Virus record (IMG/VR): IMGVR_UViG_3300023296_001674
Strand: one strand, 5' to 3'
Length of the DNA: 64,000 bases
Source: a virus
Part shown: in pieces, positions 9,040 through 57,643 of the stretch
Layout: every line of letters starts with the position of its first letter
How positions within the stretch are numbered: the first letter of the stretch is position 1
Notes under the pieces: generated by a model
Databases searched by the model: none
What the model saw: only the letters and a program-made list of their open reading frames with translations
Told to the model about the DNA's origin: nothing
Position numbers and translations under genes: made by a program

Positions 9040-9933
9040 ATGAAATGCGAAAATGGTTGCGGCAAAGAATCTATATATATAACCAAGCGTGGAAGGCATA
9101 TATGCGCCAAATCTGGAAATTCATGTCCCGCTGTTAAAGAGAGAAAAAAACTATCGTATTTGAAAAAATATGGAGTTGAAAATCCGCAACAATCAAAAGA
9201 AATAAAAGATAAAACAAAAAAAACAAATCTTGACCGATATGGTTCAGAATATATTGTTATTTCTAAAGATTTTAATAAAAAAAGCAAAAAAACATTAATG
9301 GAAAATTATGGTGTCGAATATAATATGCAATCGGATATAATACAAAATAACAGAAGAAAAAAATCATTAGATATATATGGCGTAGATCATCAAAGTAAAC
9401 GTGAAGACATTAAAGATAAAAAAAGGCAGACGTCATTAAAACGATATGGGGTAGAAAGTTATTTTCAAACCGATGAATTTAGAGAAAAATATATAAAAAC
9501 AATGTTGGATAGATATGGCGTCGAGAATCCCATGCATGATAAAAAAATAAGAGAAAAATGTATTAAAGCTGCCATATCTTCATATTATAAAAAGGGCATA
9601 GGTATATCGTCTAACGGTGAACAGCGATGGCTTGATAGCCATAATATAGATATAAAAAATAGACAAAAAGTTATTGAATGTAACAGTGGCAAAATTTATA
9701 GTGTTGATGCATTAGTTGATAATACGGTTTATGAATATTTGGGTGTTTTTTGGCACGGACATCCAAAATATTTTGATCATGAAAAAATTAATACAGTCGT
9801 TGATATATCATTTGGCGAGTTATATATAAAAACAACACAGCGCATTAATGATATTATTGACACTGGATATGAAATTATTGTAGTATGGGAAGATGGAACA
9901 AATTTTACAGGAAATGAAATACATGAGACGTGA
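9040..9933 (+). CDS. freestanding homing-endonuclease-like protein: repeated YGVENP DNA-binding modules + C-terminal Vsr-like PD-(D/E)xK nuclease (mobile element)
   Basis: Five ~30-aa repeats ending in (K/R)YGVE(N/S). The C-terminus YEYLGVFWHGHP...GYEIIVVWEDG matches the Vsr motifs FVHGCFWHRH...GWRVLIVWE. Inserted between phoH and the topoisomerase gene. Confidence 0.6.
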   Translation: MKCENGCGKESIYITKRGRHICAKSGNSCPAVKERKKLSYLKKYGVENPQQSKEIKDKTKKTNLDRYGSEYIVISKDFNKKSKKTLMENYGVEYNMQSDIIQNNRRKKSLDIYGVDHQSKREDIKDKKRQTSLKRYGVESYFQTDEFREKYIKTMLDRYGVENPMHDKKIREKCIKAAISSYYKKGIGISSNGEQRWLDSHNIDIKNRQKVIECNSGKIYSVDALVDNTVYEYLGVFWHGHPKYFDHEKINTVVDISFGELYIKTTQRINDIIDTGYEIIVVWEDGTNFTGNEIHET

Positions 9934-11284
9934 TATGACATCAAGTGAATATATTTTAGATACATCAAAAGAATATTCTATATACACTTGCCACAAGCGC
10001 GGAATCCCAAGAGTCACCGATGGGCTAAAAAATGGTCAACGGCAAGCATTATGGCTTATTAGAAACAAAACAGAAAAAATAAAAGTTATTGCACTAGCGG
10101 GTGCAATGATTGAATCTGAATTATATCTTCACGGTGATAAATCTGCCGCTGATTCGATATCAAAACTTGCTGCACCTTTTTGTAATAACGTTCCTTATCT
10201 TGTTGGAAAAGGAAACTTTGGAACACGTGTATCACCCGTTGGTGGTATTGGTGCGCCAAGATATGTTTCAGTCAAAAAAGGCCAAGCAGTCGAACGGTTG
10301 ATATATCCTGATTTGGACATAGTTCCATTAATGGATAATCACGATGGTTCAACCAAAGAGCCTGAAACGTTCCTTCCTATCATTCCCACCGTTCTATTAA
10401 ATGGGGTAGCAGGAATTGCCGTAGGTTGGTCAACTGATATCCTGCCACATAAGTTAGAAGATTTAATAAAGGCTACCAAAGCAGCACTAGAAGGCAAGAA
10501 AGTGCCTAAATTGATACCATCATATGATTATTTTGATATCACAGTCAAAAAAGTTCCAGGTGTTGAAAATTCTTGGGAGTTTACTGGAAAAGTGGAAATC
10601 ATTAGCACAAGTGTCGCACGAGTTACCGAGTTACCGCCAGATTTGACATTAGAAAATTTTAGAGCACAGTTAGCACAAATGGAAGATAATGGCGCAATTA
10701 TGGATTATACTGACAAATCCACGAAAGCAATCAATATCGAAATTAAATTCAGACGTGGTTCACTTAAAGATATGTCACCTGAACAATTAATTGATACTCT
10801 TAAATTGAAATCTCGAAAAAAAGAACGCATCGTTGTTATTGATTGGGATGGACAAGCAATTCGCACATATGATAATCCCGAACAAGTTGTGGTTGATTTT
10901 GTTGCGTGGAGATTTACAAAATATATTGAACGTTATGAAAAATTGCGAGATGTAACTAATAGTGAAATAAAATTTTGGAAGGGTGTGCAAATGTGCTATC
11001 TTGATGATCTACCAGATAGATTAACAAAAATGGCAAACAAAGCGGAAATGGACAAAGAAATTCAAGATATAACAAAATCAGTCAAATTATCTGACGCACA
11101 GATTGATCGTATTTCGAATTTTGCATCATATAGATGGACTAAAGATGGATATAAACAATGTGTTGAAAAAATACATGAATTAGAACAACAATATAAAGAA
11201 TATATTAGATTGTTAAAAAATCCTGATGATATCAAAGATATTTTCATTGAAGAAATAGATGCATTAAAAAAGGTTAAGTTCTAA
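9893..11284 (+). CDS. 52: DNA topoisomerase II medium subunit (T4 gp52-like, GyrA-N-like, active-site Tyr region)
   Basis: CHKRGIPRVTDGLKNGQRQALW (cf. GyrA RAIPDVRDGLKPVQRR) and an APRYVSVKK Tyr motif. True start may be an internal ATG at 9914, 9923 or 9935; 9935 would just clear the upstream stop. Confidence 0.75.
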   Translation: MEQILQEMKYMRRDMTSSEYILDTSKEYSIYTCHKRGIPRVTDGLKNGQRQALWLIRNKTEKIKVIALAGAMIESELYLHGDKSAADSISKLAAPFCNNVPYLVGKGNFGTRVSPVGGIGAPRYVSVKKGQAVERLIYPDLDIVPLMDNHDGSTKEPETFLPIIPTVLLNGVAGIAVGWSTDILPHKLEDLIKATKAALEGKKVPKLIPSYDYFDITVKKVPGVENSWEFTGKVEIISTSVARVTELPPDLTLENFRAQLAQMEDNGAIMDYTDKSTKAINIEIKFRRGSLKDMSPEQLIDTLKLKSRKKERIVVIDWDGQAIRTYDNPEQVVVDFVAWRFTKYIERYEKLRDVTNSEIKFWKGVQMCYLDDLPDRLTKMANKAEMDKEIQDITKSVKLSDAQIDRISNFASYRWTKDGYKQCVEKIHELEQQYKEYIRLLKNPDDIKDIFIEEIDALKKVKF

Positions 11285-12301: not shown

Positions 12302-14182
12302 ATGGTCAATAAAGATGAAGAAATTGATGCACTCAATCCATATCAACACTCGCGGTTGCGTACAGAAGTGTATAGTGGTTCAAGACAACCACACACCCAA
12401 GAAGTTATCATATACAATGAAAAACATGAACCAATAATCGAAGAAGTTACGTGGATTCCTGCATTATTAACATATTATAGAGAAATAGTCGATAACGCTT
12501 GTGATGAAGTTATCGGTCTTGGCAATGGCAATCGCGTCGACATAAACTTTGATAAAGACACCTTCGTGTTTAGTTGCACGGATAATGGTAGAGGTATTCC
12601 TATAAAGCCGGTTTCGAAAACTGATGATACACCGATGGCAACCGCCGTATTGACTAGAACTATGATGGGAAGAAATTTTAGAGAGCGCAAACAAGTTGGT
12701 GGACAGAATGGTATGGGTGTAGCCATTTCTGTATATTGCAGCAAGTGGTCTAAGGTAGAAATTCGCCGTGATAAAAAATTGTTTACACAAAGTTTCGCGG
12801 AACACGATATTGAATTAATGATCGAGTTTCCTAAAACAAAAAAAGATAAAAATGTTACCACTGGAACAAAAATAACTGTATCACCAAGTGAAAAGGTGTT
12901 TCATGGTGGATTGATTATGCCTGAACAATTTTTATATTCACGTATATTTGATGTAGCATTGGCTAATCCTACTGTGCAAATATTTTATAACGGTAAGCGC
13001 ATTCGTGTTAGACCGGCAAGTGAAAAAACATTATTTCCTAACGATGATACCGTGTATATCGACATTCGTGAAAATGCATTTCGATCACGATTTATATTGA
13101 AACCAGATTTTCGTGTTGGTGATGTAATGATGCATTCGATTGTAAATAACATACCTGTTTTTGATGGTGGTTCACATATCGATGCTTTCACCACCGCGTT
13201 CTATTCTGGCTTACTTAATGCTATGGCATCGCAAGCAAAGAAACGCAAATTGACGTTGCATAGAAACGACGTCAACAGCGGATTATTAATATACAATATC
13301 ACAACTATGGATGCTCCTGATTTTAACTCACAAGCCAAAACAAAATTGATCAATGAAGATGTTGGTAAGATAATCAAAAATTATTTTACTGATGAAAAAG
13401 TATTCAAAGATATTATTAAAAAGAATCCAACATGGGCCGAATCGATATTAGAACGTTGTGAAGCAAGAACGCAGAAAAAAGAAGAAAAGGATGTTGCAAA
13501 ATTATCCAAGAAAAATCTACGAGGGCGCGTTCCTGAATTGCTAGATGCTGCTGGTAAAGATAGAAGCAAGTGCATACTATTGCTTGGTGAGGGCGATTCT
13601 GCTGTATCAGGCATACCACCAGTGCGCGATCCTGACATTCATGGCGTATTGGGCATTCAAGGTAAGATCATGAACGTTAACGGCGAACGTCCAAAGAAAG
13701 TATTAGATAGTGCAACGCTGTCATCATTGATGACAACCATTGGCTTAGTTATGGGGCAAGTAACTGTTCGCAAAGAAATGAACTACGGTAAAGTTTACTT
13801 TGCTACTGATGCTGACCCTGATGGATTAAATATTGCTGCATTGTTAGCCAATTTCTTTTATACTTATTGGCCTGAATTATTTGACCCTGATAAAGAACCT
13901 GTGTTCTACATCTTCAATACGCCGTTTATTATTGCCCGTAAAGGAAAACAAAATAAATATTGGTATTCACACGACTTTAATGATTTCATACCAACTGAAT
14001 TTAAAGGATGGGAAATAACAAGAGCAAAAGGTTTAGCGGCATTGGAAGAACCTGATTGGATTTATTCATTGGCTAAACCCGATTTATACCCGCTAACTGA
14101 TGATGGCAGAATGGTAGAAGCATTAGATTTGATATTTAATTCGGATTTAGCGGACGCACGCAAATTATGGATCGGACTTTAA
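12302..14182 (+). CDS. 39: DNA topoisomerase II large subunit (T4 gp39 fused with gp60-equivalent; GyrB-like ATPase + Toprim)
   Basis: GHKL ATPase motifs EIVDNACDEV and CTDNGRGIP; Toprim ILLLGEGDSAVSG. 626 aa covers both gp39 and gp60 equivalents without interruption. Confidence 0.85.
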   Translation: MVNKDEEIDALNPYQHSRLRTEVYSGSRQPHTQEVIIYNEKHEPIIEEVTWIPALLTYYREIVDNACDEVIGLGNGNRVDINFDKDTFVFSCTDNGRGIPIKPVSKTDDTPMATAVLTRTMMGRNFRERKQVGGQNGMGVAISVYCSKWSKVEIRRDKKLFTQSFAEHDIELMIEFPKTKKDKNVTTGTKITVSPSEKVFHGGLIMPEQFLYSRIFDVALANPTVQIFYNGKRIRVRPASEKTLFPNDDTVYIDIRENAFRSRFILKPDFRVGDVMMHSIVNNIPVFDGGSHIDAFTTAFYSGLLNAMASQAKKRKLTLHRNDVNSGLLIYNITTMDAPDFNSQAKTKLINEDVGKIIKNYFTDEKVFKDIIKKNPTWAESILERCEARTQKKEEKDVAKLSKKNLRGRVPELLDAAGKDRSKCILLLGEGDSAVSGIPPVRDPDIHGVLGIQGKIMNVNGERPKKVLDSATLSSLMTTIGLVMGQVTVRKEMNYGKVYFATDADPDGLNIAALLANFFYTYWPELFDPDKEPVFYIFNTPFIIARKGKQNKYWYSHDFNDFIPTEFKGWEITRAKGLAALEEPDWIYSLAKPDLYPLTDDGRMVEALDLIFNSDLADARKLWIGL

Positions 14183-19561: not shown

Positions 19562-19596
19562 ATACATAATGTAATAATCTAAACGGAGGTTTTTTT

Positions 19597-21342: not shown

Positions 21343-22260
21343 TTGACAATGATGAACAACTACAACAGTTTTTATAAAGATTCAGTAGAATATTATGAAA
21401 GTGAAGAAAAATTTAATAGAAATAATGTTGTGATTGCAGGTGGTAACATCGTTGAATTGAAAACTAGTGTTATCGTTGTTACTCCTAAAAAAGAACCGGT
21501 AACACGCGATTCTATGATTGAAGATTTATTAGGTGACGCTGGTGTAAAACGCACTCGTATGCGTAATTCTGGTAATGAATTTGTGAAATATACCAAGCTA
21601 CCCAATGACGATGACATCGATGACGATTTGACAGAAGAAGATTATATAAATGAATACGATATTGAAACCGTCGCGTATGATAACAAACAACGAATAAGTG
21701 GCGTTGACGAGGGATTGCTTTACGGTGGTTCAACCGCCAAATTGAATAATGAATTAGCCAAATCTATTGTAGATGATATGGACGACACAGGTAATACAAC
21801 GGATAAACTTGACGAAGTGCTTGATCGCATAGGAAAACGCGTTGAAACACCAACCGAAATCAATAAAATGATTGATCCTATTGTCGAAATAGCCGAAGAT
21901 ACAATCAATAAAGTTACCGATGCAGCACGTGAAGGAATCGTCAGTGCACTTGATCGTATTTCATCACCCGATTATCCTGATTTCATTAATGAAATAGTCA
22001 ATAAAAACATTGATCTTGAAATAGAAAATGATGATACATCATTAGGATCAATGCCACGAGCGTCTGATCCCAAACCACAGGTTGACAAATTGGGTGAAAT
22101 AGACGATACGGAATATTTTAACAGCGATATCATTCGTGGTGGAGTGCCACAAAAAAATGATACACAAGAGAGTGATGCACCTACACCCGAAGCTGAACGT
22201 TTTCATGAAATGCTCCGTAAACGAGATTTCGGAATGGGCGGTGGTGGTAGTGCTGGATGA
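21343..22260 (+). CDS. acidic protein with Gly-rich C-terminus
   Basis: 305 aa, D/E-rich (DDDIDDDLTEEDY), ending RDFGMGGGGSAG. Confidence 0.4.
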   Translation: MTMMNNYNSFYKDSVEYYESEEKFNRNNVVIAGGNIVELKTSVIVVTPKKEPVTRDSMIEDLLGDAGVKRTRMRNSGNEFVKYTKLPNDDDIDDDLTEEDYINEYDIETVAYDNKQRISGVDEGLLYGGSTAKLNNELAKSIVDDMDDTGNTTDKLDEVLDRIGKRVETPTEINKMIDPIVEIAEDTINKVTDAAREGIVSALDRISSPDYPDFINEIVNKNIDLEIENDDTSLGSMPRASDPKPQVDKLGEIDDTEYFNSDIIRGGVPQKNDTQESDAPTPEAERFHEMLRKRDFGMGGGGSAG

Positions 22261-22477
22261 TGATTCGTTAAAGATAGTTAGAACCGCCGCAAGTGAGGCA
22301 GGAGACTATCTGAAGGATGTGTTAGAACCATGTGAAGGGCATCCTGTGCGAAATGCATACGCACACGTATGGGAGCGCCTTAAACACCATCTAGGCGGGT
22401 GTTCATACAAAGACTGTGATAACGACGATGTTCCACTATTGTTGGAACTGATTGAAGAAATAAGAAACAAAAAATAG
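22250..22477 (+). CDS. hypothetical small protein (start uncertain, possible GTG start overlapping the upstream gene)
   Basis: Listed ORF 22136-22477 overlaps the upstream gene by 125 nt and has no in-frame ATG after the upstream stop, so a GTG start near 22241-22250 is inferred. Confidence 0.25.
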   Translation: MLDDDSLKIVRTAASEAGDYLKDVLEPCEGHPVRNAYAHVWERLKHHLGGCSYKDCDNDDVPLLLELIEEIRNKK

Positions 22478-22517: not shown

Positions 22518-22594
22518 GGGCGTGTATTCCAACCGGTAGAGAAACGAGACTTAAAATCTCGACAGTGTGGGTTCGAATCCCACCACGCCTACCA
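22518..22594 (+). tRNA. tRNA with anticodon UAA (Leu by anticodon) but short 5-nt variable loop (class I architecture); CCA encoded
   Basis: Hand-folded cloverleaf: acceptor GGGCGTG/CACGCCT (G1-U72 wobble); D-loop with GG; anticodon stem CGAGA/TCTCG; loop CUUAAAA; T-arm GTGGG-TTCGAAT-CCCAC; discriminator A then CCA. Confidence 0.7.
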
Positions 22595-22598
22595 CATA

Positions 22599-22676
22599 GC
22601 TTCCGTCGTCTAACTGGATAAGGCACCCGACTTCTAATCGGGATATTTGTAGGTTCGAGTCCTACCGGGAGCACCA
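22599..22676 (+). tRNA. tRNA-Arg (anticodon UCU); CCA encoded
   Basis: Acceptor GCTTCCG/CGGGAGC; D-stem GTCT/AGGC with AACTGGATA loop; anticodon stem CCCGA/TCGGG; loop CUUCUAA; T-arm GTAGG-TTCGAGT-CCTAC; A73-CCA. Confidence 0.8.
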
Positions 22677-40004: not shown

Positions 40005-42263
40005 ATGCCTAACGGATTTGACCAACGACACATTTCTATAATGCTTCAAAAAGCAGTAACATTAGCAGAAAAATACGATCACATATATATAACATTAGAA
40101 CATATCAGTTTAGTATTACTGGATGATAAGTCCGTTGATCACGGTATTAAAGAATGCGGCGGCGACATAAAACTTATTAAAGAAATGGTTTTGACTGCAT
40201 TGTTAGATGAAGCAGATATAACTGAAGCAGGAACTGAGCCACAACCAACAAGAGCAGTCATCAATGTTATTCAACGGGCAATCCAGCATTCTGTTGGATC
40301 AGGCCGCAATACAGTTGAACCATTTTATCTTATGGCAAGTTTGTTAATGGAAAAAGATTCCGTTGCTGTATGGGCATTAGCACAACAAAATGTTGATCGT
40401 GTAAGTTTTATTAGAACTATAAATGTTCCACCATCAGGACAAAATAAAGGTGGCCCGATGAATGAACTCGATCCTATAACGGGTCAACCTATGCCACAAC
40501 CTGAAAATGCATTAAGAGATTATTGTGTTAATTTGAATGAAAAGGTAATTGCTGGTGATATTGATCCATTGATAGGTCGCGAAAAAGAAATTGAACGGTC
40601 ACTACAAGTTTTATCTAGACGACGCAAAAACAATCCATTGCTTGTTGGTGAGCCAGGAGTTGGTAAAACCGCTATTGCAGAAGGATTGGCATGGAAAATT
40701 GTTAATGAAACCGTGCCAAATTATATCAAAGATTCTATTGTATATTCGTTGGATATTGGTGCACTTATGGCTGGTGCCAAATTTCGCGGTGATGTCGAAG
40801 AACGATTAAAAGCGGTTCTTGCCGGATTGGAAGAAGTTGGCAAAACCAACAAAACCATATTATTCATTGATGAAATTCATACCATTATTGGTGCGGGTGC
40901 TACATCAGGTGGAAGTATGGATGTTAGTAACCTATTGAAACCCGCACTTGCTGCTGGTTCATTACGTTGCATGGGTTCCACCACATATGCTGAATATAAT
41001 AAGTATTTCGAAAAAGATGCGGCACTTAAGCGTCGTTTCAAAAAAATTGATATTATTGAACCTACTGTTGATGAAACAAAAACTATTATCAAAGGTTTGG
41101 CAAAATATTTTGCTGAGTATCATGAAGTTAAATTCACAAAAGAAGCATTAATGAGTGCAGTTGATTTATCCGTTAAGCATATACACGATAACAAACTTCC
41201 AGATAAAGCGATTGATGTTATTGATGAGGCGGCGGCAGCACAAAGATTATTCGATGGCGAAGATCGCCTTGAAATCATTGATGTTAAACAAATTGAAGAA
41301 ACCGTTGCAAAGATTGCAAGGATTTCTATTGATGCAACATCAAAAACCGACAAAGATAGATTGCGTAACCTTGCAGAAAATCTAACAACACATGTGTTTG
41401 GTCAAGAAGAAGCGATTGATGTTCTAACCAAGGCAGTTAAATTAAGCAAATCTGGATTGCGTGAAGAAAATAAACCGATTGGTAATTTCTTATTCAGTGG
41501 ACCTACAGGCGTAGGTAAAACCGAAGTTGCAAAACGTCTTGCCGATGAACTAGACGTTCCGTTGGTGCGATTTGATATGTCTGAATATATGCAAAAGCAC
41601 GAAGTGTCTAAACTTATTGGATCGCCACCTGGTTATGTTGGTCATGATGATAGTGATGGATTTTTAATTGAAGAAATTGATAAGCATAATTATTGTGTTT
41701 TATTGTTAGATGAAATCGAAAAAGCACACCAAGATATATTCAACGTTCTGTTACAAGTTATGGATAATGCAACACTAACCGGTGGTCGCAATAAAACAGT
41801 GCGCTTTGACAATGTTATAATCATCATGACATCAAATGCTGGTGCATCAGACCTTGCAAAAGAAGTTATGGGATTTGGCAACGAAGAGCGAGTTGGCGAT
41901 GATCTTATAGCCATCGAAAAATTATTTACACCTGAATTTAGAAATCGTTTGGATAAAATCGTTGGATTTAAACCATTACAACAAGAAATAATGAATAAAG
42001 TTGTTGTTAAATTTATAAAACAATTGAAAGTTCAACTTAAAACACAGGATGTTAAACTTACGTTGATGAAGAAAGCCATTGAGTGGCTTGCCGTTAAAGG
42101 ATACAGTTCCAAATATGGAGCACGACCACTTTCGCGTGTAATAGACAATCATATCAAGCAGCCAATATCTGAAGAGTTATTATTTGGTCAACTTGAAAAT
42201 GGTGGTTCAGTTAAAATTGACATCGTTGAAGACGAACTTGAATTCACTTACAAACCAAAATAA
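40005..42263 (+). CDS. clpA: ClpA-like double-ring AAA+ unfoldase (Clp N-domain, D1, D2; no ClpB middle domain)
   Basis: Collinear with E. coli ClpA: [44 protein letters not shown] (D1), [14 protein letters not shown]2 Walker [33 protein letters not shown] tripeptide sits at the IGL-loop position. Confidence 0.85.
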
Positions 42264-45275: not shown

Positions 45276-46064
45276 ATGAAGCAATTTACGAATAATATAT
45301 ACTTAGGCGATACTCTCGATATGATGAAACAGATTGATGACGAATCTATTGATCTGATTATCACCGATCCACCATACGGAATGGCTTATCACGGCAATAG
45401 ACGCAATGAAAAGGCTGATGCATGGGGAAATGTCGATAAAAAATTTGATCATATCGAAAATGATAGCGGCGAAGAGTTTGAAGCGTTATTGTTGAGTTAT
45501 ATCACGGAATGCCTACGTATAATGAAACCAGATACTGCAATGTATATGTTTTGTAGTTGGCACAAAGTTGGTTTCTTTCAAGCAGAACTTGAAAAGCATT
45601 TCACATTAAAGAATTTATTGGTGTGGAACAAAAATAATCATACAGTTGGTGATTTGTACGGCAGTTATGCACCAAAGCACGAACTTGTGTGGTTCTGCCA
45701 TAAAGGTCGCGTGACTATGCAAGATACCAAAAGACACACCGATGTATTAGATCACGATGATGAAACTATATTGAATGATATGGTTATAATGGATCATAAA
45801 AAAATACATGATCCAGTTCATCCAACAATGAAACCGATTGATATGTTACGAAAGTTTGTTAGAACATCAAGCAAAGAGAATGATTTGATATTTGATGGAT
45901 TTATGGGTAGCGGCTCAACTGCGGTTGCAGCAGCAAAAGAAGGTAGACAGTTTATGGGTGCAGAACTATCACCTGAATATCATAAAATAGCATCAGATAA
46001 AGCAAATGCAGCCATACAGGATAAGGAAGCAGAAGATGCTAGTAAAAGTTACCTTGAATGGTAA
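45276..46064 (+). CDS. beta-class DNA methyltransferase (N6-adenine or N4-cytosine), intact
   Basis: Motif IV DLIITDPPYG near the N-terminus. C-terminal HPTMKP...IFDGFMGSGSTAVAA (motif I FxGxG): circularly permuted beta-class order. Confidence 0.75.
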   Translation: MKQFTNNIYLGDTLDMMKQIDDESIDLIITDPPYGMAYHGNRRNEKADAWGNVDKKFDHIENDSGEEFEALLLSYITECLRIMKPDTAMYMFCSWHKVGFFQAELEKHFTLKNLLVWNKNNHTVGDLYGSYAPKHELVWFCHKGRVTMQDTKRHTDVLDHDDETILNDMVIMDHKKIHDPVHPTMKPIDMLRKFVRTSSKENDLIFDGFMGSGSTAVAAAKEGRQFMGAELSPEYHKIASDKANAAIQDKEAEDASKSYLEW

Positions 46065-49371: not shown

Positions 49372-50673
49372 ATGACACATATATCGTTATATAATAGCAT
49401 GTCGAGAGAAAAAGAAAAATTCAAACCAATAGACGATTCTCGCGTAACTATGTATTATTGCGGTATCACCCCTTATGATAAACCACATCTTGGTAACGTA
49501 AGAGCGAGTATCACTGGTGATATGATATATAGACTGTTGCGGGTTTTTTATAAATCAGAAAATGTCATATATGCTAGAAATATTACTGACATAGATGATA
49601 AAATCGAAGCAAAAAGCCAAGAAACAGGAAGGTCTGCGATTGATATAACGAATGAAACTATTCAATGGTTTCATGAAACTATGAAAGTATTACATGTATT
49701 GCCACCGGATTTGGAGCCAAGGGTTTCTGATAATGAAGAATCTATGATGGATATGATTAACATATTACTTGATAAAAATATCGCATATAAATCAAATAAT
49801 GGTGACATTTATTTTGAATTAGATAAATTTCCAGAACACGGAAAATTATGCCGCCACAGTCGCGAAGATTTAAATATAAATGAAGAACATTCTTCAGAAA
49901 AAAAACATCCACAAGATTTTGTTTTATGGAAAGAAAATCATCAACGATTTGGTTGGCATATTGAATGTTCCGCGATGATTAAAAAGCATTTGGGTGACAC
50001 TATCGATATTCATGGTGGTGGTGGTGATTTACGTTTCCCACATCATGAGAATGAAATAGCTCAAAGTGAAACTGCTAATGGTGTCCCATTGGCTAATTAC
50101 TGGATGCATAACGGTATGATTACAGTGAACGGAAAGAAAATGGCTAAATCTACTGGAAGCTTTATTACAGTCGATGAAGCACTAGATCGTGTTCCCGGCG
50201 AAGCGATACGATTTTACATGCTTAAGACGCATTACCGTAAACCGTTTGATTGGTCGTGGGATGGTTTGATGGAAGCCAAGTCTGAACTTGATGGGTTATA
50301 TAGAAAGATGCAGAAACGCACTTATGTTAAAATGGGTGGCGTGTCAGTACAAGTATTATATGCGTTGGCTGATGATTTGAATACACCATTGGTGATATCA
50401 GAATTATACAAAGAAGCGGATAAGGAAATATCTTCTTTATTGGATTCGGCGCAGCTATTGGGTATACTGAATCATACACCAGAAGAATGGTTTCATGGCA
50501 CAACGAAAGATTCATTACTTGATGCATCGTCAATCGAGGCACTTATTGAAGTACGGAAACTATTGAAAGAAAATGGCGACTATGAATCTGCGGATATAAC
50601 AAGAGATATATTATTAGGACAAGGCATTATACTTGAAGATAAACCAGATGGGACAACTTGGCGAAAAATATGA
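49372..50673 (+). CDS. cysS: cysteinyl-tRNA synthetase
   Basis: Collinear with E. coli CysRS: YYCGITPYDKPHLGNVR (HIGH-type motif reads HLGN), NITDIDDKI, WHIECSAM, IHGGGGDLRFPHHENEIAQS, KMAKSTG (KMSKS), C-terminal ILEDKPDGTTWRK. Zn-ligand Cys/His positions are conserved. Confidence 0.85.
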   Translation: MTHISLYNSMSREKEKFKPIDDSRVTMYYCGITPYDKPHLGNVRASITGDMIYRLLRVFYKSENVIYARNITDIDDKIEAKSQETGRSAIDITNETIQWFHETMKVLHVLPPDLEPRVSDNEESMMDMINILLDKNIAYKSNNGDIYFELDKFPEHGKLCRHSREDLNINEEHSSEKKHPQDFVLWKENHQRFGWHIECSAMIKKHLGDTIDIHGGGGDLRFPHHENEIAQSETANGVPLANYWMHNGMITVNGKKMAKSTGSFITVDEALDRVPGEAIRFYMLKTHYRKPFDWSWDGLMEAKSELDGLYRKMQKRTYVKMGGVSVQVLYALADDLNTPLVISELYKEADKEISSLLDSAQLLGILNHTPEEWFHGTTKDSLLDASSIEALIEVRKLLKENGDYESADITRDILLGQGIILEDKPDGTTWRKI

Positions 50674-50921: not shown

Positions 50922-51005
50922 TATAATGTAAATAATAGATAGACAATTACTTAATAAAGTGTTATATTTAAAGAACATAATATTTTAAAATAGGAAGAGT
51001 TATAT

Positions 51006-52060
51006 ATGTTATATAATGACGATTGTTTAGTCGCAATGAAAAAATTAATTGAAGAAAATACACAAGTGGATTCTATTGTAACCGATCCGCCATATCATCT
51101 AACCAACACAAATGATGAAAATAAAGGTTTCATGGGTAAACAATGGGATGGTGGCGATATTGCGTTTAATGTTGAAACATGGAAACTCGCATACGATCTT
51201 TTAAAACATGGTGGTCATTTAATAGCGTTTAGTGCATCAAGAACATATCATCATATGGTGGTAGCCATTGAAAATGCGGGATTTGAAATACGTGATCAAC
51301 TTATGTGGCTTTATAGTTCAGGTTTTCCTAAAGGACATAATATATCTAAAGGATTAGAAAAAACCGGTGCAACACCTGTTGACATTGAAACATGGGAGGG
51401 ATGGAATACGGTGTTAAAGCCAGCACATGAACCAATAGTTTTAGCCAGAAAGCCATTAGAACCTGACTCGACTATTGCGCAAAACGTGTTGAAACATGAC
51501 ACAGGTGGTTTGAATATAGCCGACTGTAGCGTGGGCGATGAAAAAAGATTCAATCCAAGTGCAAGTAGCAATAAAATTTATGGTCAATTTGAAGGATCAG
51601 AAAAAGATGGTAGAGATTCTACAGGTAGATATCCAACAAACGTAATTCATGATGGATCAGATGATGTCAATGACGCTTTTCAAAAATATGCCCAATCGGG
51701 TGAAAATCCTATTCGTTTTTTTATGGGTCTAAAACATCTGAAACTGAACGCAATCATGGATCAGCAAATATTAAAAATACACACCCAACTGTTAAACCAC
51801 AAGATTTGATGCGTTATTTATGTCGTCTTATTACGCCTAAAAATGGAATAGTGTTTGATCCATTTATGGGTTCTGGATCAACCGGAATAGCTGCTAAAAC
51901 TGAGGGTTTTGATTTTATTGGCATTGAACGCGAATTAGAATATTTTGAAATATCTAAAAAACGAATAGAAACTGCATATCATGTTCCTAACAAAAAAGTA
52001 GTGTTGTCTACAGACAACAATGATTCTGTGCCAGACCTTGATGATATATTCAAAGAATAA
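51006..52060 (+). CDS. beta-class DNA methyltransferase interrupted by a frameshift at a T7 run (51716-51722); two ORFs 51006-51809 and 51806-52060
   Basis: ORF1 carries IVTDPPYHL (motif IV). Frame +2 downstream encodes THPTVKPQDLMRYLCRLITP...VFDPFMGSGSTG (HPTxKP + FxGxG). A -1 slip on U_UUU_UUU, or one extra T, fuses them into a ~351-aa MTase. Confidence 0.65.
51716..51722 (+). promoter_or_regulatory. slippery homopolymer U7 (X_XXY_YYZ-type heptamer) at the methyltransferase frameshift point
   Basis: TTTTTTT in the zero frame as cgT TTT TTT atg. A -1 shift here enters the frame encoding the MTase C-terminal motifs. Confidence 0.4.
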
Positions 52061-55572: not shown

Positions 55573-56295
55573 TTATTTATGTTTACAATTGTCATTATGC
55601 CACCTATTTAATGCTCCATAATTTCGAGTTGATAAATTGCAATGAGGGCATGTTTTATATGGCTGTGATAATTTTGCTTTAGACATTTTATTTTTAGCCG
55701 ATATTGTTTTAGGTTTTCCTTTTGCCGCATTGCTCATTTTTTGTTTAGTTGTTTCGGAGTGTGTTCTTCCGTATTTACCTGTTAATGCCGCGCTAATACA
55801 TTTTTTAGTTTCTTTGCTGAGTTTTTTACCTATATTCGCCAAAAATAATTTTTGTTTGGTTTCTGCTGTATGTTTTTTGCCTACCCCCGCTAAAGATAAT
55901 TTTTGTTTGGTTTCTTCTGATAATTTCTTACCTTTATGAGCATTGCTTATTTTTAATTTAGTTTTTTCAGTATGTTTGTATCCACTTTTACAATAAAATT
56001 TATTGTCGCCGTTGTGTTGATTTAGATAATTTGTATTATTGGCTGCGTCAATTTTTGATAAAACTTTGCTTTCCCATAATCTGGCTTTTTTTGGATTATT
56101 TGGAAATTCTTTACGTATTTCATATATAAAATTTTCTAATCCATATTTTTGTATAAGGCTTTCGATAATTGCCGATGAAGTAAAATATGTAGACCACAAA
56201 TCAGATGGGTGGCAGTTTTTAGCATATCTTACCCCATAATAATGTTGGCCCGTTTCTAAAAAAGTTATGCGATATGTATAAGGTATATGATTCAT
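55573..56295 (-). CDS. GIY-YIG homing endonuclease with NUMOD3 repeats (Seg-like; mobile element)
   Basis: N-terminal YTYRITFLETGQHYYGVR (GIY-YIG). C-terminal repeated KGKKLSEETKQKLS / IGKKLSKETKK / GKYGRTHSETTKQKMS NUMOD3-type units. Confidence 0.75.
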   Translation of the reverse strand: MNHIPYTYRITFLETGQHYYGVRYAKNCHPSDLWSTYFTSSAIIESLIQKYGLENFIYEIRKEFPNNPKKARLWESKVLSKIDAANNTNYLNQHNGDNKFYCKSGYKHTEKTKLKISNAHKGKKLSEETKQKLSLAGVGKKHTAETKQKLFLANIGKKLSKETKKCISAALTGKYGRTHSETTKQKMSNAAKGKPKTISAKNKMSKAKLSQPYKTCPHCNLSTRNYGALNRWHNDNCKHK

Positions 56296-56330: not shown

Positions 56331-56425
56331 ATAAAGTAGTGGGACAGCCCAACTTCCTTGGCGGGTTTTAGTTGTTGAAACCAACTAATTACCACTATAT
56401 CTATTTATTTTTTGGAGTTAAAATC

Positions 56426-57643
56426 ATGAATGACCATCGCGAGATTGCTACAGCTTTAGACTTATTTCATTTTGAGGAGCATTCACCAGGAATGGTATAT
56501 TGGCATCCTGAAGGGTTTAAATTATATCGAACCATAGAAGAATATATGCGAAGCATGCATGAAAAATATGGATATAAAGAAATTAGAACACCAATAATGG
56601 TCAATAAATCTTTATGGAAATTGTCTGGTCATTGGGATAAATTTCAAGACAATATTTTTATTGCTGGTGAAATAGGTGAAGTAATAAGCGATGAGTTAAT
56701 TTATACTGACGGGCAATATGTAATGTCTCCGATGAATTGTCCAAATCATATACAAGTGTACCAAAAGGGAACAAAGTCTTACAAGATGCTACCTGATCGT
56801 TTATTTGAATTTGGTGTGGTGCATCGCAATGAACCATCTGGATCATTGGCTGGCATTATGAGATTGCGAAGTTTTACACAAGATGACTCGCATATACACT
56901 GTACTGAAGATCAAATTTTGAGTGAAACAACCAATTTTATCAATATGCTTCAAGAAGTTTATTCTAAGTTTGGGTTCAATGACGTCGCTGTAAAACTTGC
57001 CACTCGATGTGAAGAACGCATTGGCGACGATGCCAGTTGGGATAAAGCCGAGAAAGCATTAGAAGATGCTTGTATACATCTTGGATTGGAATACACAATT
57101 AATCCCGGTGAATCAGCATTCTATGGCCCAAAACTTGAGTTCACGCTACAAGATAGCCTTGGTCGTGATTGGCAATGTGGAACCATCCAGATTGATTTTA
57201 ACATGTGCGAACGATTGGGTGCTACATACATTGACGAAAATGGTGATAAGAAACATCCGGTATTGATTCACCATGCTGTATTGGGAAGTTTGGAACGCTG
57301 GGTTGGTGTATTGCTTGAGAACAGCAATGGTGAACTACCGTTGTGGCTTGCCCCTACACAAGTGGTTGTTGCCAGTATTACCAGTGATGTTAATGACTAT
57401 GCTGAAGAGAAAATGGTTACACTTAGTGGTATCGGATATCGAGTTGAGTTGGATGACCGAAATGAAAAAATCGGTAAGAAAATCAAAGACGCACAGAAAC
57501 GACGTATTCCATATATGCTTATTGTGGGTAAAAAGGAAAAAGAGAATCAAATGGTCAACGTTCGCAAATTGAACGGCGACCAAGATGATATGGAGTTGAT
57601 AGATTTTATAGGATCATTCGTCAAATCTACAAATGAAAGGTGA
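56426..57643 (+). CDS. thrS: threonyl-tRNA synthetase catalytic core + anticodon-binding domain, lacking the N-terminal TGS and editing domains
   Basis: Trimmed to ATG 56426 with SD GGAG. Starts at the class-II core (DHREIATALDLFHF.EHSPGMVYWHPEGFKLY, cf. E. coli ThrRS ~res 242 RDHRKLG..L.LF...). Class II motifs 2/3 and the C-terminal anticodon-binding fold are present. ~405 aa vs ~640 for full-length ThrRS. Confidence 0.8.
   Translation: MNDHREIATALDLFHFEEHSPGMVYWHPEGFKLYRTIEEYMRSMHEKYGYKEIRTPIMVNKSLWKLSGHWDKFQDNIFIAGEIGEVISDELIYTDGQYVMSPMNCPNHIQVYQKGTKSYKMLPDRLFEFGVVHRNEPSGSLAGIMRLRSFTQDDSHIHCTEDQILSETTNFINMLQEVYSKFGFNDVAVKLATRCEERIGDDASWDKAEKALEDACIHLGLEYTINPGESAFYGPKLEFTLQDSLGRDWQCGTIQIDFNMCERLGATYIDENGDKKHPVLIHHAVLGSLERWVGVLLENSNGELPLWLAPTQVVVASITSDVNDYAEEKMVTLSGIGYRVELDDRNEKIGKKIKDAQKRRIPYMLIVGKKEKENQMVNVRKLNGDQDDMELIDFIGSFVKSTNER

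Follow-up and report, generated by a model that had tools for sequence, protein, structure and literature searches.

Among the described systems closest to the locus considered here is mboIIM2 deltaA356, an engineered frameshift in a methyltransferase gene; in E. coli, slippage during transcription of a T7 tract has been shown to rescue it (Koscielniak et al. 2018, PMC6260861). Slippage by the E. coli RNA polymerase is detectable from runs of at least 7 Ts, and at a T7 tract a U was inserted in 0.75% of transcripts, with a GFP reporter rescued to about 5% (PMC6260861). On the side of the ribosome, -1 frameshifting at U_UU.U_UU.U exceeds 0.10% in E. coli even when no stimulator is present, and genes contain fewer UUUUUUU runs than expected, whichever the frame (PMC4066793). 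This heptamer and U_UU.U_UU.C are both classed as shift-prone, the latter being found in IS elements (PMC4066793).

Another example of a viral or bacterial gene governed by a homopolymer is the thymidine kinase of HSV, where an indel in the G7 run, offset by compensatory frameshifting, has been described as a 'savior indel' (Atkins et al. 2016, PMC5009743). In H. pylori, methyltransferases are switched by changes in homopolymer length, and repair of the tract restores their activity (Krebes et al. 2014, PMC3936762); such switching is regarded as likely for tracts of more than 8 bp (PMC3936762).

The DNA analysed here (the window) is a stretch of 64,000 nucleotides that is coding-dense, mainly on the + strand, with about 35% G+C. 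Proteins identical to its own are found in JGI, Logan and ENA data, on contigs as long as 570,750 bp, and its T4-type topoisomerase II subunits are closest to those of Agrobacterium phage Atu_ph07 and Sinorhizobium phage Phosso; it belongs to a T4-like huge phage known from metagenomes only. At 51006-52060 the window carries a DNA methyltransferase gene that is divided between two reading frames at a run of seven Ts. This division probably, though by no means surely, reflects a real and recent T8-to-T7 contraction that inactivated an accessory DNA methyltransferase of the huge phage, with a possible leak of product through unprogrammed slippage. The parts of the locus are as follows.

50992..50999, + strand: Shine-Dalgarno-like AGGAAGAG, found by direct sequence reading, 6 nt 5' of the methyltransferase ATG
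51006..51722, + strand: N-terminal part of the methyltransferase, read in the zero frame, residues 1-239, with DPPY, later conserved motifs and the variable target-recognition region
51716..51722, + strand: T7 run, forming a U_UUU_UUU heptamer in the zero frame, at which the reading frame changes
51723..51809, + strand: out-of-frame tail in the zero frame, 28 codons (MGLKHLKLNAIMDQQILKIHTQLLNHKI) and TGA, without family homology
51722..52060, + strand: -1-frame C-terminal part, residues 240-351, with Y240, K243, S245, E248, R249, HPTVKP and FMGSGSTG
51809..52060, + strand: 83-aa ORF reported by gene callers for the C-terminal fragment, its ATG overlapping the zero-frame TGA

The zero-frame ORF extends from 51006 to 51809 and encodes 267 aa, ending with the TGA at 51807-51809. 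At its start, nucleotide homology begins about 35 nt 5' of the ATG when the locus is compared with that of its closest orthologue, a protein of 346 aa (P0005) encoded on the Logan contig L084, which shows 78% amino acid and about 85% nucleotide identity and has a syntenic downstream gene. An earlier note on this DNA had placed the DPPY catalytic motif in the N-terminal ORF, where it is indeed present (motif IV, residues 27-30, 51084-51095) and invariant in an alignment of 16 sequences. The same note had assigned HPTxKP and FxGSGST to a -1 frame that starts inside TTTTTTT at 51716-51722, and both reading and alignment bear this out, with HPTVKP at 51782-51799 and FMGSGSTG (AdoMet-binding motif I) at 51863-51886, in the -1 frame only. 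The sequence at the run is ...aat cct att cgT TTT TTT atg ggt cta aaa..., in which the zero-frame cgT TTT TTT atg forms an X_XXY_YYZ heptamer in the correct frame, again as the note had read it. From 51716 the -1 frame reads FFYGSKTSETERNHGSANIKNTHPTVKPQDLMRYLCRLITPKNGIVFDPFMGSGSTG... and ends at the TAA at 52058-52060. A single frameshift in the T run strips the AdoMet-binding motifs from the zero-frame product, and joining the zero and -1 frames yields a product of 351 aa.

The fused 351-aa product matches the Pfam profile PF01555 (N6_N4_Mtase) with 119.6 bits over positions 1-221 of 221 (cut-off 26.7), in line with the claim that one -1 slip restores an enzyme of about 351 aa, whereas the N-terminal ORF alone matches with 39.4 bits over profile positions 1-111. 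Relatives with solved structures, namely DpnA (PDB 5hek, E = 5e-24), CcrM (6pbd) and M.MboIIA (1g60), give two-piece matches around a variable middle; in the case of DpnA, residues 2-110 of the fused product align to residues 4-117, and residues 257-322, the HPTVKP/FMGSGSTG region, align to residues 165-230. The DPPY motif comes first, followed by the variable middle and then by HPTxKP and FxGSG in the C-terminal part, and the motif order is therefore that of the beta class. Judged by its sequence, the fused product is a beta-class N6_N4 DNA methyltransferase, sharing both the full profile match and the motif order with PF01555 enzymes such as DpnA, CcrM and M.MboIIA, and it differs from the other PF01555 homologues in that its coding sequence spans two frames at T7, whereas 161 of 161 others are unbroken. 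The DPPY motif is linked to adenine specificity. Because of this motif and of the names that sources give to the homologues, the methyltransferase is probably N6-adenine-specific.

The window holds one further gene of this family:

45276..46064, + strand: second N6_N4 DNA methyltransferase, intact, 262 aa, PF01555 131.6 bits

This gene had been described in the earlier note as an intact paralogue of the split one. The first part of that description stands, in that the gene is intact and on the + strand and its 262-aa product matches PF01555, but as a paralogue it is only distant: across 66 aa of the AdoMet-binding part the two proteins are 44% identical. Since the relationship is only distant, its specificity is presumably different, and on this comparison it is a different enzyme and not a back-up copy of the split gene.

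The 83-aa ORF at 51809-52060 is probably not an independent gene, because HPTVKP and a Shine-Dalgarno sequence are both missing: by sequence reading, the ORF has no HPTVKP and there is no purine-rich ribosome-binding site in the upstream gttaaaccacaagatttg. A two-subunit methyltransferase made of the 267-aa and 83-aa proteins was considered and rejected, given that such an enzyme would be without the 29 residues that lie between the shift site and the internal ATG and that this ATG has no ribosome-binding site; the missing residues include the invariant Y240, K243, S245, E248, R249, N258 and HPTVKP. An alternative genetic code was also rejected, as the window has dense long ORFs under table 11 and no hint of stop-codon reassignment. 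For annotation, the 267-aa and 83-aa ORFs are best treated as one frameshifted methyltransferase gene, and neither as two genes nor as a programmed frameshift.

The position of the frame change can be narrowed to the T run itself. The -1 frame is blocked 5' of the run by a TGA at 51701-51703, and when 15 homologues are aligned with the fused product, RFFYGSKTSETER at the junction matches the family consensus RFFYCPKTSxxER without gaps, with F239, Y240, K243, S245, E248, R249, N258, HPTVKP and FMGSGSTG all invariant. P-I-R comes from frame 0 and F239-Y240 from frame -1, so that the switch between the two can lie only within the T run. By simple arithmetic from the 12 T runs of at least 7 in the window, the chance that such a run falls within the interval of about 19 nt permitted by homology is about 0.004.

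The comparison with homologous loci bears directly on whether the split is a regulated feature of this family. A tblastn search with the fused protein gave hits in 164 of the fetched loci; in 161 of these the N- and C-terminal parts lay in one frame, and the other three, which are split, are copies of the window. At the corresponding site the closest orthologue reads ATT AAG TTT TTT TAT GGA (I-K-F-F-Y-G), with seven Ts and a single frame. The FFY motif was located automatically in 84 homologous loci and its codons compared; in four of these loci (L046, L084, L090 and L095) it is encoded as NNN TTT TTT TAT, an in-frame T7 after a non-T base, while a distant homologue on the metagenome contig UEXM01052987.1 (L158) has an in-frame T8, GGT TTT TTT TAT, at the FFY motif. 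Since the closest orthologue has the same T7 in frame, the T run is attributable to the FFY motif and not to a switch. Where a genome is AT-rich, conservation of FFY in itself creates a homopolymer hazard, as seen from the in-frame T7 or T8 of several relatives. Unrelated inactivating lesions in the orthologues, which the earlier note had named as a possible sign of decay, were not found; the orthologues are intact, and this is therefore evidence against conserved recoding.

One of the three readings put forward in the earlier note was a regulated -1 frameshift, that is, classical programmed ribosomal frameshifting that would keep truncated and full-length methyltransferase in a fixed proportion, and the locus has the features that first suggest it: a perfect X_XXY_YYZ heptamer, U_UU.U_UU.U, which is listed as shift-prone (PMC4066793) and lies in the right frame, and a slip there that yields exactly the family-consensus junction, RFFYGSK. 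The heptamer is what the locus has in common with dnaX and with the IS911/IS3-type sites. In those systems, however, the heptamer is accompanied by hairpins or pseudoknots and/or an upstream Shine-Dalgarno sequence, conserved among relatives, and none of these was found here. RNA secondary structures predicted for stretches that follow or surround the run (48, 78 and 125 nt) gave z = -0.06, -0.40 and +0.84 against dinucleotide shuffles, so that in these folds the downstream stimulatory structure that had been suggested as a check does not appear beyond shuffled controls at any of the three lengths. Rfam gave no match at the shift site, and no convincing upstream Shine-Dalgarno-like stimulator was seen, the only candidate being a weak GGGTGA 12 nt upstream that is missing in the closest orthologue. 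The shift itself is absent from that orthologue and from all 161 other loci, and a methyltransferase fragment without the AdoMet-binding site has no known function. As far as these sequences can tell, the split is not a conserved programmed frameshift, and programmed frameshifting as such is very improbable.

Of the three readings in the earlier note, recent inactivation fits the present results best, with a single lesion at a mutable run, the invariant residues kept and similar dN/dS on both sides of the shift. The dN/dS values were estimated by the Nei-Gojobori method for the window against the locus of the closest orthologue.

237 codons upstream of the shift: dN/dS 0.179, dS 0.55
83-codon conserved core downstream of the shift: dN/dS 0.211, dS 0.48

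The 112 codons downstream of the shift contain zero stops and keep 36 of 36 family-invariant residues, and by these three measures (dN/dS, stops and invariant residues) neither relaxed constraint nor extra lesions were found downstream. The low dN/dS means that purifying selection acted on the downstream part during essentially the whole divergence between the window and its closest orthologue. The lesion is taken to be recent because nothing downstream has decayed; at the level of sequence, this lack of decay fits equally well a frameshift that is very recent and a downstream frame that is still expressed.

The same undecayed downstream part, together with the fact that a one-base difference in homopolymer length is a classic type of error, would also suit a true genome with T8 and an intact gene, misread in sequencing or assembly. 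However, T7 occurs in assembled contigs from three pipelines (Logan, ENA and JGI), which are possibly not independent samples, so that the identical copies may come from one data set. The Logan contig from SRR7528804 is 100% identical to the window over 10.8 kb, and the ENA contig from ERZ27315896, which has a MEGAHIT-style k141 name, is 100% identical over 1,051 bp; both have T7. No publication was found for SRR7528804. Six contigs carry the 267-aa truncated ORF and seven the 83-aa C-terminal ORF. Identity of 100% over up to 10.8 kb points to an accurate short-read consensus, and the three assemblies agree on T7.

The T8 allele was sought in several collections. Its exact product is missing from a collection of 15 billion proteins, where there was also no full-length protein cluster above 78% identity to the fused methyltransferase, and neither GTDB genomes nor IMG/VR matched an exact pattern that permitted T7 or T8. 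With an 88-aa peptide across the junction as query, the only matches were short distant fragments, none above 57% identity when the whole query was covered; a T8 allele was not among them, which is a weak negative in that the candidates were apparently short proteins only. Scans of IMG/VR and JGI metagenomes with the fused protein gave only relatives of at most 56% identity, the window's own contig not being recovered either. A megablast of the locus against GenBank phages gave no match, and there are thus no close cultured relatives for comparison.

The other homopolymers of the window offer a further view of assembly quality. There are 42 runs of at least 7 bases, seven of which are 8-mers; on the + strand these are strongly skewed, with 30 A runs against 12 T runs and none of G or C. 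Of the 12 T runs, ten belong to minus-strand genes and another (19590-19596) is intergenic, which leaves the run in the methyltransferase as the sole sense-strand U run of at least 7 within a coding ORF in 64 kb. A scan for homopolymer runs separating two long ORFs in different frames flagged the methyltransferase run, an A7 at 22151 and three ordinary gene junctions. The A7 (22151-22157) sits between the ORFs 21343-22260 and 22136-22477, neither of which has a Pfam or PHROG match, so there is no homology support either way. A second frameshift at this A7 was considered but is improbable, as a GTG start follows GGTGGTGG and the upstream frame has a plausible C-terminal tail, which suggests an ordinary overlapping junction. 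At the other 41 homopolymers of at least 7 bases, the seven 8-mers included, no second broken gene was demonstrated, and an artefact is less likely because an error-prone assembly would be expected to break further genes. The homopolymer sequencing error that the earlier note had listed among its readings is accordingly unlikely, in view of T7 in three identical assemblies, the missing T8 product and the lack of another demonstrably split gene; it is given a low probability here.

If the T8-to-T7 contraction is taken as the explanation, the R/K-F-F-Y motif would formerly have been encoded as CGT TTT TTT TAT, with a run of eight Ts, and replication slippage would have dropped one T to leave T7. 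We infer the T8 ancestor from the fact that CGT followed by T7 and AT is the exact remainder of a one-T contraction of CGT TTT TTT TAT; the same window sequence would also result if a CGN or AAG-type codon just before the run had lost its third base. The in-frame T8 of the distant homologue matches the putative ancestral state, and the hazard therefore recurs in the family. Normal translation of the T7 allele would give the 267-aa truncated protein, with DPPY and the target-recognition region, which should be catalytically inactive because HPTxKP and the FxGSG AdoMet-binding motif are missing. Full-length enzyme would be made only via unprogrammed slippage, where either the RNA polymerase adds a U or the ribosome slips by -1 on U_UUU_UUU, and the two events would yield an identical RFFYGSK junction. 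The lesion looks like a recent, ordinary inactivating mutation.

A leak of full-length methyltransferase at a sub-percent to few-percent level is plausible, this estimate being drawn from E. coli rates that may not hold for this phage and its host. The locus is like mboIIM2 deltaA356 in being a methyltransferase gene that lacks one base, and in that system the T7 tract allows insertion of a U and low-level active enzyme. While mboIIM2 deltaA356 was engineered in E. coli, the lesion here is natural and lies inside the tract itself, and the slippage is only predicted.

Whether such a leak could be of use to the phage leads to an adaptive reading, in which the lesion is either a 'savior indel' that provides a small useful dose of methyltransferase or one state of a reversible T7/T8 contingency switch, as in a phase-variable methyltransferase, by which methylated and unmethylated genomes would coexist in the phage population. 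U7 is a proven slippery heptamer and is at the threshold for slippage by bacterial RNA polymerase, the downstream part is perfectly kept, and the run is the only sense-strand T run of this length inside a coding ORF in the window. Precedents are also available in the HSV thymidine kinase G7 run (PMC5009743) and in the homopolymer-switched methyltransferases of H. pylori (PMC3936762). With the former the locus shares a viral accessory enzyme knocked out by a one-base homopolymer indel and a possible low level of slippage product, but for the phage methyltransferase there is no known selective agent. With the latter it shares a methyltransferase ORF turned off by a change in homopolymer length; the H. 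pylori tracts, however, are usually longer than 8 bp, often of G or C, and polymorphic among cells, as opposed to a T7 that is dictated by FFY and for which no length variant was found. Viewed as a contingency locus, the tract does lie within the ORF but is short, against the more than 8 bp of the H. pylori paper, no T8 allele turned up in any protein collection or contig scan, and the copies, all of them from assemblies, are identical. The failure to find a stimulator and the in-frame T7 of the closest orthologue, where the run is explained by the FFY motif, also count against an adaptive use, which is on balance unlikely, if still worth weighing. The narrower proposal that the huge phage keeps the lesion as an 'off' state and uses U7 slippage or T7/T8 reversion to obtain a small or stochastic dose of adenine methyltransferase is more doubtful again. 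Were it true, the locus would be a phage-borne counterpart of phase-variable or 'savior-indel' methyltransferases, varying the methylation of progeny genomes against host restriction systems. Likewise, if the tract proved polymorphic or measurably leaky, it would represent natural slippage-tuned or phase-variable methylation in a huge phage, with a bearing on restriction arms races. No result obtained here demands a slippage-tuned or phase-variable reading.

The remainder of the window places the methyltransferase among a varied set of genes, which also includes a clamp loader, homing endonucleases, a ClpA-like ATPase, cysteinyl- and threonyl-tRNA synthetases, a dephospho-CoA kinase and two tRNAs. 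Several neighbours of the methyltransferase are host-like and unusual in phages:

40005-42263, + strand: ClpA-like double-AAA ATPase, 937 bits, just under the ClpA cut-off
49372-50673, + strand: cysteinyl-tRNA synthetase, full-length, TIGR00435, 385.8 bits
52531-53133, + strand: dephospho-CoA kinase CoaE, 120.3 bits

Two of the homing endonucleases are found next to other genes. One, at 55573-56295 on the - strand, is of the group I intron type with a NUMOD3 motif and lies immediately 5' of the ORF 56372-57643 on the opposite (+) strand. The other, at 9040-9933 (+, phrog_3339), overlaps the start of the gene for the GyrA-like topoisomerase II subunit (9893-11284), and the GyrB-like large subunit (12302-14182) follows 1 kb beyond the GyrA-like gene, after four small ORFs. 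Elsewhere, an AAA ATPase of 640 aa (31740-33662, +) is directly followed by a full-length DUF6638 protein (33679-34956, +, 335.6 bits), and the two look like a gene pair (31740-34956). Adjacent tRNA genes for Leu(TAA) and Arg(TCT) are present at 22518-22676 (+), and since both decode A/T-rich codons, they fit the phage's 35% G+C.
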